A stretch of 64,000 nucleotides of DNA, taken from Candidatus Krumholzibacteriia bacterium (lineage in GTDB: Bacteria; Krumholzibacteriota; Krumholzibacteriia; G020349025). The notes beneath the pieces are model-generated. The model saw only the letters and a program-made list of their open reading frames with translations, was not told the origin of the DNA and ran no database searches. The stretch is taken from NCBI GenBank assembly GCA_035649275.1, contig DASRJW010000024.1, positions 3,759-67,758 of the forward strand. The letters run 5' to 3'. This document shows positions 26,157 to 57,000 of this stretch, in pieces (position 1 is the stretch's first letter; each line of letters opens with the position of its first letter). The translations under genes and the position numbers were made by a program.

Positions 26157-26275
26157 TCGACACTTCCTCCGCGGTGATGCTTCCTTCTAAAGGATGGTGC
26201 TGGCCCGGTCAACCGTTTCTAGCGGCTCCGGAGGCGATCTGCAATACTCGGACCTCCACCGTTCCAGGAGAGCCC

Positions 26276-51664: not shown

Positions 51665-52576
51665 ATGGAGCGCCGGCACGGCCAGGATGAGCCTCGGGTC
51701 TTCGAGGATCACCGTGACAATCTCACCGTGGACGTGCAGAACGTGCTCATGCAGGAACGCGCTTCGCAGTTGCGCAGCGAAGACAGCCAGGTGGCACTGC
51801 TCTGGAACGTCTTCCGCTCGCTGCAGAACCTCGATCCGCGCCTTTGGCTGCCCCGTCTCGTTCTCCAGGCGCTGGGAGCCAAGAAAAGCAACCCACGCCT
51901 GCGCGGACTGCTGGCACCGAGTCAGCTCGTCGAACCTGTCTTCCATTGGTGGCAGCGGTACGACCTGCCCCCGAGCCGGCACGAGTGGCTCCGCGACCAG
52001 ACGACCCACGGCAACCTCGACCTCGGCCACTATCCCGCCTGCTACGTGCCGGAAAAGAAGGCCGAGGCGTCGCGGCTGCTGCAGGAAGGTCTGTTCCTGG
52101 AAGAACGGGTCGAGGTCCCCCTGGTCATCGAAACTTCGTCTTTCTGGCTCGGGATCCTGGCCGTCTACAAAGGCAACCTGCGCCAGCACAGCCGCTTCGA
52201 TGCCAAGCGCGACGATCTCCTGCGCTTGCTGGACGCTGGGACTCATCAGGCCACGTTGGCAGGGAAGAGATTCCTCGGGCTCGTCCTCTACACCGATGCC
52301 CGCACCTACAACACCGAGACCAAGCGTCTCTTGGATCTCTACCGCAGCCACGGCGACATGCTGGTGTCGCGCTTGCCGCACCGCCAGGACTCCGCGGTGA
52401 TCACCGAAGCGGCCCGGCTCCTCGGCGAATTGCGCTGGCGCGACCTGGGCGGTGTCCTCCTGGACACGAAGGAAGAAGAGCGCATCGGCCTCTTCGATCT
52501 CGCGGTCCTGGACGAGCTGATCAAGTACCTGGCGCGCAAGGACGTCGGCTTCAATCTGCTGCGCCGTCTCAAGTGA
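51665..52576 (+). CDS. Hypothetical protein (304 aa), possibly PD-(D/E)xK-like
   Basis: ATG at 51665 (MERRHGQDEPRVFEDH). Segment VEVPLVIETSSFWLGILAVYKG is a weak nuclease-core resemblance. Confidence 0.45.
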   Translation: MERRHGQDEPRVFEDHRDNLTVDVQNVLMQERASQLRSEDSQVALLWNVFRSLQNLDPRLWLPRLVLQALGAKKSNPRLRGLLAPSQLVEPVFHWWQRYDLPPSRHEWLRDQTTHGNLDLGHYPACYVPEKKAEASRLLQEGLFLEERVEVPLVIETSSFWLGILAVYKGNLRQHSRFDAKRDDLLRLLDAGTHQATLAGKRFLGLVLYTDARTYNTETKRLLDLYRSHGDMLVSRLPHRQDSAVITEAARLLGELRWRDLGGVLLDTKEEERIGLFDLAVLDELIKYLARKDVGFNLLRRLK

Positions 52577-52593
52577 AAACCGCCCCGACTGTC

Positions 52594-52663
52594 GCTGCCG
52601 TTGAGTTCAGCTGCCGTGGATCCTTCCCCGTCGACCGCTGCCGTGGACCCCTGCTGCCGTTGA
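52594..52663. repeat. Four direct copies of GCTGCCGT(T/G)GA at 52594, 52610, 52637 and 52653, flanked by a 9-10 bp inverted repeat (52576-52586 / 52713-52721)
   Basis: Read directly from the 143-bp intergenic region upstream of the FG-GAP gene. The pattern is TTGA/TGGA/TGGA/TTGA with spacings 16/27/16. Confidence 0.6.
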
Positions 52664-52719
52664 CCCCTGGGCGCATCCCTGACTAGACTCGAAAGTCTGC
52701 CTTTCCCGGGGAGGGCGGT

Positions 52720-53469
52720 TTGTTCTGGCGTCGACTGGTTTGGCTCGTCCTGCTGGGGTGCCTCACGCCCACGGCGCTCTATGGCGATTTCCTGACGCCC
52801 CGCGCCGCGGACTTCGCGTCCAAGTACCCGCCGTTGACGATGGTGAACGGCCCGCAACGGCGGCTCCTGTTCGGCAGCTACCGCGGTACGTTGCAACTGT
52901 TCGAGAGCCGCAACGGCAAGCTCGTCGAGGTGAAAACCCGGGAGCTGTGGTCGCCGGTGGTGCGCATCTACGCCGCCGACCTGGACGGCGACGGCCAAGA
53001 TGAAGTGGTGGGATACACGCAGAACGCCCGACTCTTCGTCCTGCGTGGTTCCGATCTGCAGGACATCTGGAACACACCGGAAAAGCGGTTCAACAGCATC
53101 TCTGCCCTCACTCTGGGTGACGTCGACGACGACGGCCAGCTGGAGATCGTCTTCATCGCCGACAACCTCCTGCGCTTCTACACGGCGCTGCAGGACGTGG
53201 AGGAATGGAAGAGCACGATCACCTTCACCAACGCCACCGAGATCGCCATCGGCGATGTGGACGGCGACGGTGGCCTGGACATTGTGCTCAACTCCGGCAT
53301 CGTGCTCGGCGCCGTCTTCCGCGACGTGAAGTGGACGTACACCACCGGGTTCGGCTCTCGCATCGACCTCTACGACATCGATTCCGACGGCAAGCTGGAG
53401 ATCGTGGGCTACGGTGGTGACGGGTTGATGCGAGTCTTCGACGTCGACGAGCGTCGGTTGAAATGGTGA
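52720..53469 (+). CDS. FG-GAP/VCBS-type repeat protein (secreted or membrane-anchored)
   Basis: Four DxDxDG-type repeats (DLDGDGQDEVV, DVDDDGQLEIV, DVDGDGGLDIV, DIDSDGKLEIV). N-terminal hydrophobic segment. TTG start with GGAGGG SD. Confidence 0.65.
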   Translation: MFWRRLVWLVLLGCLTPTALYGDFLTPRAADFASKYPPLTMVNGPQRRLLFGSYRGTLQLFESRNGKLVEVKTRELWSPVVRIYAADLDGDGQDEVVGYTQNARLFVLRGSDLQDIWNTPEKRFNSISALTLGDVDDDGQLEIVFIADNLLRFYTALQDVEEWKSTITFTNATEIAIGDVDGDGGLDIVLNSGIVLGAVFRDVKWTYTTGFGSRIDLYDIDSDGKLEIVGYGGDGLMRVFDVDERRLKW

Positions 53470-53792
53470 GTACGCCCTCCCCTGGGTGAGGGGGGTGCCA
53501 CGGGACGGGATTCGCCGCCGCAAGAGACTTCCGCCGGGACCGTCAGCGCCACCCGCCGCCCCCGCACCCGCTTGTCGGCGCCCCCACCTACCACGCCGTC
53601 GGCGCCTCCCCCGACGCACCACCTGTCGGCGTCGGCCCCCAACCCACCACCGACCGAGCGCTCGTGACGACCGGGGAAATTCCAGCAATTGGTTCCGCTG
53701 CTTGCACCGGTCTTGCGGAGAAGGTGCCATGGTATCCCGCAGCGGAGCCGGGGCTGGTCCGCAACCGGTTGTAGAAACGCGCGTTGCGTTGA

Positions 53793-53801
53793 TGGTATAC
53801 T
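53793..53801 (+). promoter_or_regulatory. Extended -10 promoter element TGgTATACT upstream of the large outer-membrane protein gene
   Basis: TGGTATACT at 53793-53801, about 58 nt upstream of the TTG start at 53860 (SD GGAGGA at 53850). Confidence 0.3.
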
Positions 53802-53859: not shown

Positions 53860-56800
53860 TTGCGTTTCCCTCGACACCTCGGGTTCTTGCTCCTCGGCCT
53901 CGTCGCGGTACCGGCGCAGGCGCAGCTGCAGTACTTCGGCAAGAACAAGGTCGAGTACGAGGAGCAGGACTGGCGTGTCCTGCAGACCCGGCACTTCGAC
54001 GTGCACTTCTACGCCGGTGAAGCGGCCATGGTGCACGACGCGGCGCGCTTGGCGGAACGGGCCTACACCGAGCTCGCCGCCGTCCTCGGTCACGAGTTGC
54101 CGCGGCGCATTCCCCTCGTCCTCTACGCCTCGCACTCCGACTTCCAGCAGACTCACATCACGCCGTCCATGATCGACGTCGGCACCGGGGGCATCACCGA
54201 TCTGGCGCGGCGGCGCGTCTTCCTGCCCTTCAACGGTTCCTGGGGCGACTTCCAGCACGTGCTCACCCACGAGCTCGTGCATGCCTTCGAGATCGACATT
54301 CTTTTCGATTCCACCCAGGGCGATCCGCTGAATCCCTTCGCCTTCGCGCCGCCGCTCTGGGTGATGGAGGGCCTGGCCGAGTACCTGTCGCGGCCCCAGC
54401 AGGACAGCTACACCGCCATGTGGCTGCGCGATGCGGCCCTCTCGGGACGGCTCCTGTCGCTGCCGCAGCTGGAGCAAGTCCAGGACATCCGTATTTACCG
54501 CTTCGGCCAGAGCGTCTTCTCCTACTTCGCCGAGCGTTACGGCAGCCGCCGCATCGGCGACCTGCTGCGTGCGCTCGCCACCAGTCGCAGCCTGGAGCGG
54601 GCGTTCGAGGATGTCGCCGGCGTCTCGTTGCAGCAGTTCTCCGAGGCGTGGACCACGGCCGTGCGCCGGCGGCACCTGCCCGAGCTCGGGCAGCACCAGC
54701 TGAACCGCGAGTACGCCACCCCGGTGGTCACCCGAGAGAGCGAGAACGCCGGCATGCTCCTCGTGCCGAGCATCTCGCCGGACGGCCGCTACCTGGCCTA
54801 CGTGAGCGACGCCGGGCTCACCCGCGACCTCTATGTCCGCGATATGGAGGAAGGGCGCTCGCGCCGGGTCGTGCACGGCGAGCAGAGCGGAGACTTCGAA
54901 TCGCTGCGTTTCTTCAACGCCAGCGCCGCCTGGGCGCCCGACGGCAAGACCCTCGCCTTCGTCTCGCAGTCGCGCGGCGAGGACGCCCTCAATCTCCTCG
55001 ACGTGCAGCGCCGACGTGTCGTCGCCAAATATCGCTTTGGTCTCGACGAGCTGCAGACTCCGACCTTCTCGCCGGACGGCGGCGAGCTGGTTTTCGTCGG
55101 TCTCGAGGGTGGGCAGAGCGATCTCTATCGCGTCCGCAGGGATGGCACCGATCTGCGCCGGCTCACCGCCGACCGCGCCGGCGAGCGGGATCCGCAGTGG
55201 TCACCGGACGGCCGGAAACTGGTCTACGTCACCGATGACGGTGAGGACGCGGACTTCGAGGCACTGCGCTTCGGCACTTGGAAGATCGCTCTTCTGGAGC
55301 TGGAGAGCGGCAGACGCGAATTGCTACGCCCCTTCAGAACAGGTGCCGCTGCCAGCCCTGTCTGGTCCGGAGACGGCGGCTCGATCGCCTTCATCGCCGA
55401 CCCGGACGGCATCCCGAACATCTATGTGCTGCACCTCGCGACGTCGAACGTCTTCCGCCTCACCGACACGGTGACCGGTGTGGGTGGCGTCTTGCCGGAG
55501 AGTCCGGCCCTGTCCTGGGCCCGGGGGAGCGATCGCCTGGTGTTCTCGGCCTTCGGTAACAGCGGCTGGGACATCTTCCGTATCGACCGCCCGGCCAGCG
55601 TCATGCGTCCCCTGGAAGGCGCCATCGCCAACCTCGTCACGAAACACGGTGCGACGGAGGCGGCAGGCCTTGTCGCTCCCGACTCCATGAGCGCGGTCAG
55701 CACAGTGGCGGACTCCGTCGCTCGCGACTCCCTCGCGATGAAGACCGTGTCGGTCGACTCCATCGCGCCGTCCTCGGTTGCTCGAGACACCATGGCGCCG
55801 TCCTCGCTTGCGTGGGACGGTATCGCGCCAGCCTCGGCTGCTCGCGACTCCAGCGCGGCCGCTGGCGCAGCATCGGCGGCCCTTCACCCCGGCGCCGGCA
55901 TGACCTCGCCGGCGGCGGCCACGACGCCGCCAGGCGTGCTGCTGCCGGCGCCCGAAGCGATGGATTTCGTCGAGCGCCCGTACCATGCGCACCTCGCCCC
56001 CGATGTCTCGCAGGTAGCAGGGGTCGTGGGAAGCCAGGGCGGTTTCGGCGGTGCCTCGCTCATCCACTTCAGTGACCTCCTCGGCGATCATTTGCTCAGT
56101 GTGGGCTTCGGCATCTATGGCTCGCTCAAGGATTCCGATCTTTCCCTCGAGTATCTGAACCGTTCGGGACGAACGAACTACCAGTTCGGCGTTTTCCAGC
56201 ACCAGCGGCGTTACGGGTTCCTGGCCTCCGCGGTAGCCGGAGTCGAGAAGCAGACGTATCTCGGCGTGCGCGCCGCCGCGATCCGTCCCTTCGACAAGTT
56301 CTCTCGTGTCGAAATGTCGATGCAGCTCGCCGCTGTTCGCGGCCGCTTCTTCTTGGGTGAGACCTTGGGGGATGGGAGCGTGCAGGAGCTACGCAGCTTC
56401 GCGGGCCCCGGGCTCGCCTACGTGGTGGACACGGCGCTCTTCGGTTCCACCGGCCCGATCATGGGGCGTCGCCTGCGCCTCGGCCTCGAGTCCGGTTTCG
56501 GCGAGCTCGACTTCCGCACCCTCGAACTCGACTGGCGGCAGTACTGGAGCTTCGGGGCCAGTTTCACGCTGGCCGCCCGTGGCTACCTCGCCGGGAGCTG
56601 GGGGGCGACGCCGCAGAGTTTCTTCCTGGGTGGAGCGAACACGCTGCGCGGTTACGCCTACGGCGCGCTCGCGGGAACTCACGCTGGTCTCGCAGGACTG
56701 GAGTTCCGCTTCCCACTCCTGCGCTACCTCGCCCTCGGCTGGCCCTTGCCGCTCGAGCTCGGCAACGTGCGCGGCGTTCTCTTCGCCGAATCCGGCTCGG

Positions 56801-57000
56801 CTTGGGACAGCGTGTGGCTTCGCACCAGCCGCGCGGCCGCGGGGATGGACGTGGATCTGGGGCCGCAGGTGGCCTACGGCTTCGGCACGCGCATCGATTT
56901 CGGCGCCTACATTCTTCGCCTCGATTGGGCGCAACTCTACGATCCGCGCACGGGCCACACGCGGCGCGGCTCGAGTGTCGCTGTCGGCGCGGACTTCTAG
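53860..57000 (+). CDS. Multidomain outer-membrane protein: N-terminal HEXXH zinc-peptidase-like domain, PD40/TolB-like beta-propeller, and C-terminal Omp85/surface-antigen-like beta-barrel
   Basis: Signal peptide LLLGLVAVPAQA. HEXXH motif as HELVH within VLTHELVHAFE. PD40 repeats (SPDGRYLAYVSD, WAPDGKTLAFVSQ, FSPDGGELVFV, WSPDGRKLVYVTDDG, WSGDGGSIAFIADPDG). C-terminal alternating hydrophobic beta-strands ending in an aromatic residue (AVGADF). Confidence 0.6.
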   Translation: MRFPRHLGFLLLGLVAVPAQAQLQYFGKNKVEYEEQDWRVLQTRHFDVHFYAGEAAMVHDAARLAERAYTELAAVLGHELPRRIPLVLYASHSDFQQTHITPSMIDVGTGGITDLARRRVFLPFNGSWGDFQHVLTHELVHAFEIDILFDSTQGDPLNPFAFAPPLWVMEGLAEYLSRPQQDSYTAMWLRDAALSGRLLSLPQLEQVQDIRIYRFGQSVFSYFAERYGSRRIGDLLRALATSRSLERAFEDVAGVSLQQFSEAWTTAVRRRHLPELGQHQLNREYATPVVTRESENAGMLLVPSISPDGRYLAYVSDAGLTRDLYVRDMEEGRSRRVVHGEQSGDFESLRFFNASAAWAPDGKTLAFVSQSRGEDALNLLDVQRRRVVAKYRFGLDELQTPTFSPDGGELVFVGLEGGQSDLYRVRRDGTDLRRLTADRAGERDPQWSPDGRKLVYVTDDGEDADFEALRFGTWKIALLELESGRRELLRPFRTGAAASPVWSGDGGSIAFIADPDGIPNIYVLHLATSNVFRLTDTVTGVGGVLPESPALSWARGSDRLVFSAFGNSGWDIFRIDRPASVMRPLEGAIANLVTKHGATEAAGLVAPDSMSAVSTVADSVARDSLAMKTVSVDSIAPSSVARDTMAPSSLAWDGIAPASAARDSSAAAGAASAALHPGAGMTSPAAATTPPGVLLPAPEAMDFVERPYHAHLAPDVSQVAGVVGSQGGFGGASLIHFSDLLGDHLLSVGFGIYGSLKDSDLSLEYLNRSGRTNYQFGVFQHQRRYGFLASAVAGVEKQTYLGVRAAAIRPFDKFSRVEMSMQLAAVRGRFFLGETLGDGSVQELRSFAGPGLAYVVDTALFGSTGPIMGRRLRLGLESGFGELDFRTLELDWRQYWSFGASFTLAARGYLAGSWGATPQSFFLGGANTLRGYAYGALAGTHAGLAGLEFRFPLLRYLALGWPLPLELGNVRGVLFAESGSAWDSVWLRTSRAAAGMDVDLGPQVAYGFGTRIDFGAYILRLDWAQLYDPRTGHTRRGSSVAVGADF

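Follow-up and report, generated by a model that had tools for sequence, protein, structure and literature searches.

Tandem direct repeats abutting the −35 element are known from promoters controlled by ToxR (ctxAB), OmpR (ompF/ompC) and PhoB. There, same-orientation sites (TTTTGAT heptads for ToxR, F1–F3 and C1–C3 for OmpR, pho boxes for PhoB) lie directly upstream of the −35 or overlap it, follow a regular helical phasing (7, 10–11 or 20–22 bp), stand in for a poor −35 in most cases, are found at further promoters and have a known regulator. In Neisseria and Haemophilus, repeats of another kind make promoters phase-variable, such as TAAA upstream of nadA and the poly-G or TA tracts that separate −35 from −10. 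Bacteria also carry minisatellite-like tandem arrays in their intergenic regions. For the Krumholzibacteria, a literature search found nothing on promoters, promoter architecture or regulation.

Here we analyse a repeat array in a 64,000-nt stretch of DNA (the window) from a Candidatus Krumholzibacteriia bacterium, located in the intergenic region between two genes on the + strand. The upstream gene (51665–52576, TGA stop at 52574–52576; call transferred from L001, with translation) encodes a 303-aa conserved hypothetical protein and is syntenic in all orthologous loci. The downstream gene (52720–53469), with a TTG start at 52720 and a Shine–Dalgarno sequence GGAGG read from the sequence at 52710–52714 on the + strand, encodes a 249-aa FG-GAP repeat protein with a Sec-type signal peptide (Pfam FG-GAP_3, E = 3.2 × 10−16). 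A lipoprotein assignment based on its 'LLGC' motif was ruled out, as the Cys is not conserved.

The motif GCTGCCGTKGA, that is GCTGCCGT(T/G)GA, has four exact matches, all on the + strand and 16, 27 and 16 nt apart from start to start: R1 (GCTGCCGTTGA, ending in TTGA, 52594–52604), R2 (GCTGCCGTGGA, TGGA, 52610–52620), R3 (GCTGCCGTGGA, TGGA, 52637–52647) and R4 (GCTGCCGTTGA, TTGA, 52653–52663). No further match occurs in the window, where 0.14 would be expected, and 0 of 100 shuffles reach four; with one mismatch allowed in the 10-mer, 15 matches are found compared to 11.8 expected, so nothing rises above chance outside the array. In scans of genome and metagenome contig collections for paired 11-mers, the at least 120 matches listed in each came mostly from unrelated taxa; among those listed, only L198, which is the L009 contig, is related to the window, and one match inspected by eye (L063) is a coding repeat. 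An initial sequence-only reading had listed these four copies, which we confirm, but the '27-nt gap' between R2 and R3 holds a fifth, degenerate copy that it overlooked (ttccCCGTCGAcc; TTCCCCGTCGA at 52624–52634, + strand, with the heptamer CCGTCGA at 52628–52634). Thus the heptamer CCGTNGA, whose background rate is 4.8 × 10−4 per nt per strand, occurs five times in 66 nt, at 52598, 52614, 52628, 52641 and 52657, with spacings of 16, 14, 13 and 16 nt. The array had also been described as internally symmetric. The 16/27/16 spacing of the exact copies is real, but these are direct repeats throughout: as every copy has the same orientation, the T-G-(C)-G-T order is a mirror pattern and not a dyad.

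As a whole, the array (52583–52666, + strand) can be divided into two 43-nt units (52583–52623 and 52626–52666, 73% identical) or into five to six units of 13–16 nt in the register CCGTNGA. Tandem Repeats Finder reports periods of 13 and 16 at this position, and R3 and R4 together form a 16-nt tandem duplication with a 94% match. The 43-nt direct repeat, the 16-nt tandem, the 13-nt period and the fifth, degenerate copy support an origin by duplication, and the locus has the marks of a short tandem duplication array: units run head to tail, some copies are decayed and there is turnover between alleles.

The last copy has a second identity. R4 joins a 7-nt flank to the opening TTGA of the −35 hexamer TTGACC (52660–52665), which is followed after an 18-nt spacer by the −10 hexamer TAGACT (52684–52689), and together they make up a predicted sigma-70-type promoter (52660–52689, + strand) 30 nt ahead of the FG-GAP start codon. 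This resembles the canonical promoter (TTGACA/TATAAT), with 9 of 12 matches; it is the sole promoter-like match in 52300–53000 (0.0 expected in shuffles) and the single occurrence of TTGAnn-N16-19-TAnAnT in the 64-kb window. Unlike the canonical form, it is preceded by three to four further copies of the −35 together with the seven nucleotides before it. The promoter scan found no alternative promoters built on R1–R3, and since no −10 pairs with any of the extra copies, these would not act as promoters themselves. Judging from the position of the hexamers, transcription would start near 52696 and give a leader of about 24 nt.

Comparison with relatives separates this last copy from the others. 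TTGACC-N16-18-TA(G/C)ACT is present in 10/10 distinct orthologous loci (L009, a near-identical copy of the window, is not counted among the ten), 29–43 nt before the start codon and at protein identities down to 63%, with TTGACC and TA(G/C)ACT invariant throughout. The remaining intergenic region cannot be aligned, and the spacer from the upstream stop codon to the −35 ranges from 14 to 83 nt among those loci. R4 is the only copy kept in relatives: we looked for extra copies in L005, L006, L007, L010, L011, L252, L253 and L254 and found none, with matches at up to three mismatches at background level, and in L004 the extra copies are decayed. The multi-copy array is absent from every orthologous locus outside the window's own population. 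The sequence-only reading had placed a transcription-control element here. It was right about the location, and the last copy is the −35 of a conserved predicted promoter that it had not noticed, but the multi-site operator it suggested is doubtful, since the array is missing from relatives, a result that it had itself named as speaking against an operator. Its suggestion to look for the array upstream of FG-GAP orthologues thus returned the proximal copy only.

Because only the copy that serves as −35 is kept in relatives, the repeats look like ordinary repeat growth beside a promoter and not like a conserved operator or RNA leader. On balance, the array probably arose when an 'extended −35 module' (GCTGCCG + TTGA..) of the conserved sigma-70-type promoter of the FG-GAP gene was reiterated in tandem within this lineage. 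TTGACC of R4, paired with TAGACT 18 nt downstream, would drive the FG-GAP gene, and R1–R3 and the degenerate middle copy would have arisen by nested short tandem duplications with units of 16 and 43 nt. These would have fallen in the unconstrained spacer between the stop codon of the upstream gene and the promoter, and such duplications appear to be common in this genome: the window holds 13 short tandem arrays, including one in the intergenic region that follows. The extra copies would serve no conserved function and would be evolving nearly neutrally; the most they might do is give the factor that recognizes the extended −35, be it sigma region 4 or a regulator, additional places to bind, and so modulate one promoter in one population.

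In its head-to-tail units of 13–16 nt nested in 43 nt, its one degenerate copy, its fast allelic turnover and the many similar arrays in the window, the locus resembles the minisatellite-like intergenic arrays of bacteria; it differs in that the seed unit is a promoter element and in the unusually good preservation of its four 11-mer cores compared with the tails. The outcome is mainly a clean-up, in which a 'symmetric operator enclosed by inverted repeat' becomes repeat growth seeded on a −35 box, but it also provides a phylogenetically footprinted, predicted sigma-70-type promoter, TTGACC-N16-18-TA(G/C)ACT, for an uncultured high-GC Krumholzibacteriia/Latescibacterota-like lineage, and suggests how a promoter element can gain extra copies through short tandem duplication. 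Several other assignments were set aside. One was that the R2-to-R4 unit derives from the entire promoter by A-to-B unequal exchange and has since decayed; compared base by base, however, the two are no more alike than by chance once past the first 16 nt. On sequence grounds we also dropped a DnaA box, a CsrA (GGA) site, an uptake sequence, a REP/MITE and a small coding ORF, given a motif unique to this spot, a period of 16 that is not a multiple of 3 and weak resemblances.

How fast the array changes can be seen within the species. Locus L004 belongs to the same species (flanks 0–1% diverged) and carries a divergent FG-GAP cassette of roughly 1 kb, a local island of divergence. Between L004 and the window, positions 52577–52652 align with 32 matches, 19 substitutions and 26 gap columns, whereas third codon positions of the FG-GAP gene differ by 25% and the stretch from R4 to the start codon at 5/67 positions. 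The array stretch thus diverges at or above the synonymous rate, and the promoter and leader are constrained. R1 is missing from L004 (a 20-nt gap), the R2 site reads CGCGCCGTGGA (three mismatches) and R3 is decayed with a 5-nt deletion, such that the two alleles are one unit and small indels apart. At closer range, among ten contigs with at least 99.7% identity from several independent samples, segregating sites amount to 3 in 84 nt of the array (3.6%), compared to 1.6% at third codon positions and 0/60 in promoter and leader. Two of the three array variants lie inside 11-mer cores and one is an indel that alters spacing; they include a deletion of the last A of R1 (52604) in L009 and L255, and G>A at 52640 in R3, a common allele carried by 4/9 contigs that reach the position.

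Tandem units directly upstream of a promoter, in two same-species alleles that differ by about one unit and within a cassette that is a divergence island, are also what could be expected of a contingency locus, in which frequent slippage would alter the number of 16-nt units and switch or tune FG-GAP expression within populations. As in Neisseria and Haemophilus, the repeats lie in or next to the promoter of a gene whose product is exported. Here, however, copy number is equal in 10/10 near-identical contigs, slippage is disfavoured by long units that are imperfect and unequal in length, and the −35/−10 spacing is unaffected by copy number. We therefore consider phase variation very unlikely.

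The reading with more in its favour is a multi-site operator, in which a DNA-binding regulator would recognize GCTGCCGT(K)GA. The ancestral site would abut and overlap the −35 (R4) and might pair with a second box 43 bp, or four helical turns, downstream near +1; the window's population would have gained three upstream sites, and cooperative binding would repress the FG-GAP promoter, in competition with sigma region 4, or activate it. The motif is locally over-represented, and its immediate flank is kept beyond the population: GCTGCCG+TTGACC is identical in L004 and L011, and L010 has GCTGTCG. L010 and L011 (roughly 76–78% protein identity) keep these seven nucleotides while their −35/−10 spacer is unrelated, which indicates that positions −42 to −36 are under some constraint. 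Within the array, the 11-mer cores are far better conserved than the 5-nt tails (0/20 mismatches in cores compared to 6/10 in tails for R1 and R2, with boundaries set post hoc), with an invariant run of eight (P = 0.04 after phase correction). This is what protein-binding sites would be expected to show, and tandem duplication followed by neutral decay does not readily account for it. The ToxR, OmpR and PhoB arrays would offer precedents by analogy, as they share with this one their same-orientation repeats directly upstream of or overlapping the −35 and a copy number that varies between alleles.

The second box is a weak lead. A sequence 7/11 identical to the core, TCTGCCTTTCC (52696–52706, + strand), begins in the leader exactly 43 nt downstream of where R4 begins, and as R2 and R4 are also 43 nt apart, two equal steps of 43 nt lead from R2 through R4 to the +1 box. 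Although promoter spacer length differs by 1 nt, L004, L010 and L011 also have a core-like box at this offset (in L010 with 8/11 matches to that locus's own flank, in L011 with 6/11), and in L010 the same C>T change appears in both boxes. The box is not significant alone, because 63 offsets would be expected to yield about 1.4 matches of at least 7/11.

Several observations weigh against an operator. In no relative, the same-species allele included, are the extra sites intact: they are either missing or decayed. Of the three population variants, two fall in cores, one of them a common allele. Whereas the described arrays are regularly phased, spacing here is irregular once the fifth copy is included (16/14/13/16); neighbouring exact copies, being 16 or 27 bp apart, sit on opposite faces of the helix, and only the 43-nt sub-lattice (R1–R3, R2–R4) is in phase. 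The −35 of this promoter is near-consensus, the promoter needs no activator, and the 64-kb window contains no second motif locus. Nor does a regulator gene adjoin the array: the neighbouring 303-aa protein was considered for this role and rejected, as it has no HTH, no family match (no Pfam, NCBIfam or PDB sequence match) and no significant fold match (best E = 0.076; top matches McrC, Cap4 and nicking-endonuclease-type nucleases). Its AF2 model (pLDDT 81) has weak similarity to PD-(D/E)xK-type nucleases.

Taken with these points, an operator is possible but doubtful; in its favour count the retention, in a sub-clade, of the seven nucleotides flanking the proximal copy and the better conservation of the four cores compared with the tails. 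More speculative is a specific form of it, which we hold to be unlikely: GCTGCCGT(K)GA may be the box of an undescribed regulator that brackets the core promoter at −42 and +1, 43 bp apart, and one population may recently have built a five-box operator by duplicating the box that overlaps the −35. If true, the gene for a secreted FG-GAP beta-propeller, which forms a divergent, recombining cassette of its own within the species, would have come under new control. In general, if a regulator does read the extended −35, reiteration of the module would offer a ready route to new multi-site operators.

The array had further been proposed to be bounded by an inverted repeat and to form a structured 5′ leader occluding the ribosome-binding site. 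A 9-nt pair does exist, AAACCGCCC at 52577–52585 and GGGCGGTTT at 52713–52721, the latter overlapping the Shine–Dalgarno sequence and the TTG start, but a perfect 9-nt inverted repeat occurs in 18/397 equal-sized segments of the window (4.5%), close to chance, and both arms are altered in L004 without compensation (the 3′ arm reads GGGCCATGT); we thus reject it as a genuine element. An RNA element, in which AAACCGCCC and GGGCGGTTT would close a four-repeat domain and sequester the Shine–Dalgarno sequence and start codon, or in which the repeats would bind an RNA-binding protein on a transcript reading through from the 303-aa gene, agrees with a minimum-energy fold in which the inverted repeat forms and its 3′ arm covers both signals. 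Read-through transcripts are also possible, as no terminator-like site separates the promoter from the upstream stop codon. Folding energy, however, is no better than that of shuffles: −54.2 kcal/mol for 52570–52735 compared to −55.75 ± 3.8 (z = +0.41), with 130/200 shuffles at least as stable, and the leader alone (52695–52760) is not unusual (z = −0.45). Rfam gives no match, either for the whole window at gathering thresholds or for 52400–52900 at E ≤ 1, and orthologues have spacers down to 14 nt. If the predicted start is right, the array, lying upstream of the −10 element, is outside the transcript of the proximal promoter, and the main transcript would lack it. An RNA leader is thus largely refuted and, in either form, extremely improbable. 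Within the predicted leader, a local hairpin is predicted at 52697–52718 on the + strand, with its 3′ arm over the Shine–Dalgarno sequence.

The 143-nt intergenic region between the stop codon (TGA, 52574-52576) of a 303-aa conserved hypothetical gene (51665-52576, forward strand) and the TTG start (52720) of the 249-aa FG-GAP gene on the same strand carries four exact matches to GCTGCCGTKGA. All are on the forward strand: R1 at 52594 and R4 at 52653 end in TTGA, and R2 at 52610 and R3 at 52637 in TGGA. Only 0.14 matches are expected in the 64-kb window, none of 100 shuffles reaches four, the window holds no further copy outside the array and a one-mismatch search elsewhere in it gave no excess over chance; chance thus does not account for the repeat, which is real. 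The four repeats of the sequence-only reading are thus confirmed, but a degenerate fifth copy, ttccCCGTCGAcc (heptamer CCGTCGA at 52628-52634, forward strand, with the palindrome GTCGAC), occupies the middle of the supposed 27-nt gap, so that the array consists of five CCGTNGA units at 52598, 52614, 52628, 52641 and 52657, spaced by 16, 14, 13 and 16 nt (background rate 4.8 × 10−4 per nt per strand). As all copies share one orientation, the internal symmetry first described, T-G-(C)-G-T, is a mirror pattern without dyad meaning. Tandem Repeats Finder reports periods of 13 and 16 nt, with R3 and R4 forming a 16-nt tandem (94% matches), and the array can also be read as a direct duplication of 43 nt (52583-52623 and 52626-52666, 73% identical). 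This genome is rich in short tandem duplications: the 64 kb hold 13 arrays, one of them in the next intergenic region.

A consensus scan of 52300-53000 returned a single sigma-70-like site, TTGACC-18-TAGACT, with its -35 hexamer at 52660-52665 and its -10 hexamer 18 nt further on at 52684-52689, both on the forward strand. The first four bases of the -35 are the TTGA of R4, the last repeat being part of the predicted promoter element, and transcription would start at about 52696. The site is the sole match to TTGAnn-N16-19-TAnAnT in the whole window. Homologues of the FG-GAP protein come from Candidatus Krumholzibacteriia and Latescibacterota-type MAGs, and we compared ten distinct orthologous loci, with FG-GAP protein identities from 99% down to 63%. 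All contigs that are long enough share the order EPSP synthase, 303-aa gene, FG-GAP and a protein of roughly 1,000 aa with peptidase-MA, PD40, Tricorn and Omp85 parts. Each of the ten intergenic regions contains TTGACC-N16-18-TA(G/C)ACT, 29-43 nt upstream of the start codon, with 14 to 83 nt separating the upstream stop codon from the -35. Because this footprint is kept in all ten loci while the remaining intergenic sequence is unalignable, we regard the promoter prediction as strong. Elsewhere in the window (68% GC), consensus-like sigma-70 promoters are rare; the reverse strand has one other near match at 26212, TTGACC-17-TAGAAG, directly before a GGAGG.

The best-supported explanation, which we consider somewhat probable, is that the array is a lineage-specific tandem reiteration of an extended -35 module of this conserved sigma-70-type promoter, of which the proximal copy alone would be functional and conserved. 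Among known kinds, it stands nearest to ordinary sigma-70 promoters and short tandem duplications. The array is not conserved upstream of FG-GAP orthologues: a search of the orthologous spacers that allowed three mismatches to the 11-mer found the proximal copy alone, with matches at background expectation, save for a three-mismatch remnant of R2 in L004, a contig of GCA_044870345.1 from the same species as the window. There, flanks that are 0-1% diverged enclose an island of about 1 kb (roughly 52500-53540 in the window, 1480-2500 in L004) that is 7-14% diverged and takes in the entire FG-GAP gene together with the promoter and the array. Third codon positions differ by 25% in FG-GAP compared to 3.9% in the 303-aa gene, and L004 therefore carries a divergent cassette allele; within this one species, the allele of the secreted-protein cassette would seem to have been recombined or imported. 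From R4 to the start codon the two differ at 5 of 67 positions, whereas 52577-52652 has 32 matches alongside 19 substitutions and 26 gap columns: L004 lacks R1, shows CGCGCCGTGGA at R2 and has a 5-nt deletion in R3. This contrast indicates constraint on promoter and leader, whereas the divergence of R1-R3 equals or exceeds the synonymous rate.

A view of recent variation came from ten contigs out of several independent metagenomes, all matching the window at ≥99.7% identity. Copy number is the same in all ten and we found no sign of phase variation among them, making a phase-variable array most improbable. Three sites segregate within the 84-nt array: loss of an A at 52604 (R1), a C>T at 52622, directly past R2 and outside its core, and a G>A at 52640 (R3), found in four contigs. 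As two of the three fall inside the 11-mer cores, the cores give no indication of being under purifying selection in these contigs. In the array, 3.6% of positions vary, compared to 1.6% of third codon positions and none of the 60 nt in promoter and leader.

The proposal of a multi-site operator, read by a hypothetical regulator, is possible but rather doubtful. What stands of it is that the four 11-mers are far better kept than the 5-nt tails that follow them (invariant run of 8, P = 0.04, phase-corrected), R1 and R2 together having 0 of 20 core mismatches compared to 6 of 10 in tails, with boundaries chosen post hoc; such preservation is typical of binding sites. Moreover, the orthologous locus L011 shares the 7-nt flank GCTGCCG unchanged, and L010, with an unrelated promoter spacer, differs from it at one base. 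A core-like box, TCTGCCTTTCC (52696-52706, forward strand), lies exactly 43 nt past the start of R4, near the predicted transcription start. The same offset recurs in L010, whose box matches its own GCTGTCGTTGA at 8 of 11 positions with a C>T common to both, and in L011 (6 of 11), despite a -35/-10 spacer of 17 rather than 18 nt. This box is only a lead, because chance would give about 1.4 matches of at least 7/11 in 63 offsets; with R4 it could form a pair bracketing the promoter, or be due to chance. ToxR, OmpR and PhoB are regulators with direct-repeat sites abutting a -35, which the array merely resembles: its extra copies are unconserved and its spacing is irregular, so that both the conservation and the regular phasing of such sites, when tested, were absent. 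No regulator candidate adjoins the array.

The inverted repeat said to enclose the array does exist, as 9-nt arms at 52577-52585 and 52713-52721, the latter overlapping the Shine-Dalgarno sequence (GGAGG, 52710-52714) and the start codon, but it is at chance level, with perfect 9-nt inverted repeats in 18 of 397 equal-sized segments of the window, and both arms are changed in L004 without compensation. The RNA fold of 52570-52735 reaches -54.2 kcal/mol, while shuffles reach -55.75 ± 3.8 (z = +0.41); for the short leader z is -0.45, and Rfam returned no match even at E ≤ 1. Thus, a structured leader occluding the ribosome-binding site is unsupported, and we judge it highly unlikely.

Krumholzibacteriia and Latescibacterota-type MAGs conserve the 303-aa protein and its synteny; it has no sequence match in Pfam, NCBIfam or PDB. 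Its AF2 model, although confident (pLDDT 81), has no significant fold match (best E = 0.076), the weak top matches being PD-(D/E)xK-type nucleases (McrC, VC1899, Cap4 and Nt.BspD6I). We rejected a lipoprotein assignment for the FG-GAP protein from the lipobox-like 'LLGC' in its signal peptide: the cysteine (codon 14, 52760) is a tyrosine in the 99% identical homologue P0001 from L009 and absent in other orthologues, and the protein is therefore an ordinary Sec-exported one. The 1046-aa gene (53860-57000), always downstream of a small FG-GAP beta-propeller gene, encodes an unusual fusion of an N-terminal peptidase-MA-like part, PD40/Tricorn/TolB-like beta-propellers and a C-terminal Omp85-type barrel. 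About 60 nt upstream of its TTG start (53860) is a promoter-like site whose -10 is extended (TAGAAA-18-TGgTATACT, 53772-53801), and the two genes are thus probably separately promoted. The region between them has its own C-rich tandem array (53573-53651, period 24-28, about three copies) and, among near-identical contigs, three single-base indel polymorphisms (53490, 53750 and 53759). Within the 1046-aa gene, an indel of about 120 nt between the window and L004 (55650-55950) coincides with a 30-nt tandem repeat at 55756-55812.
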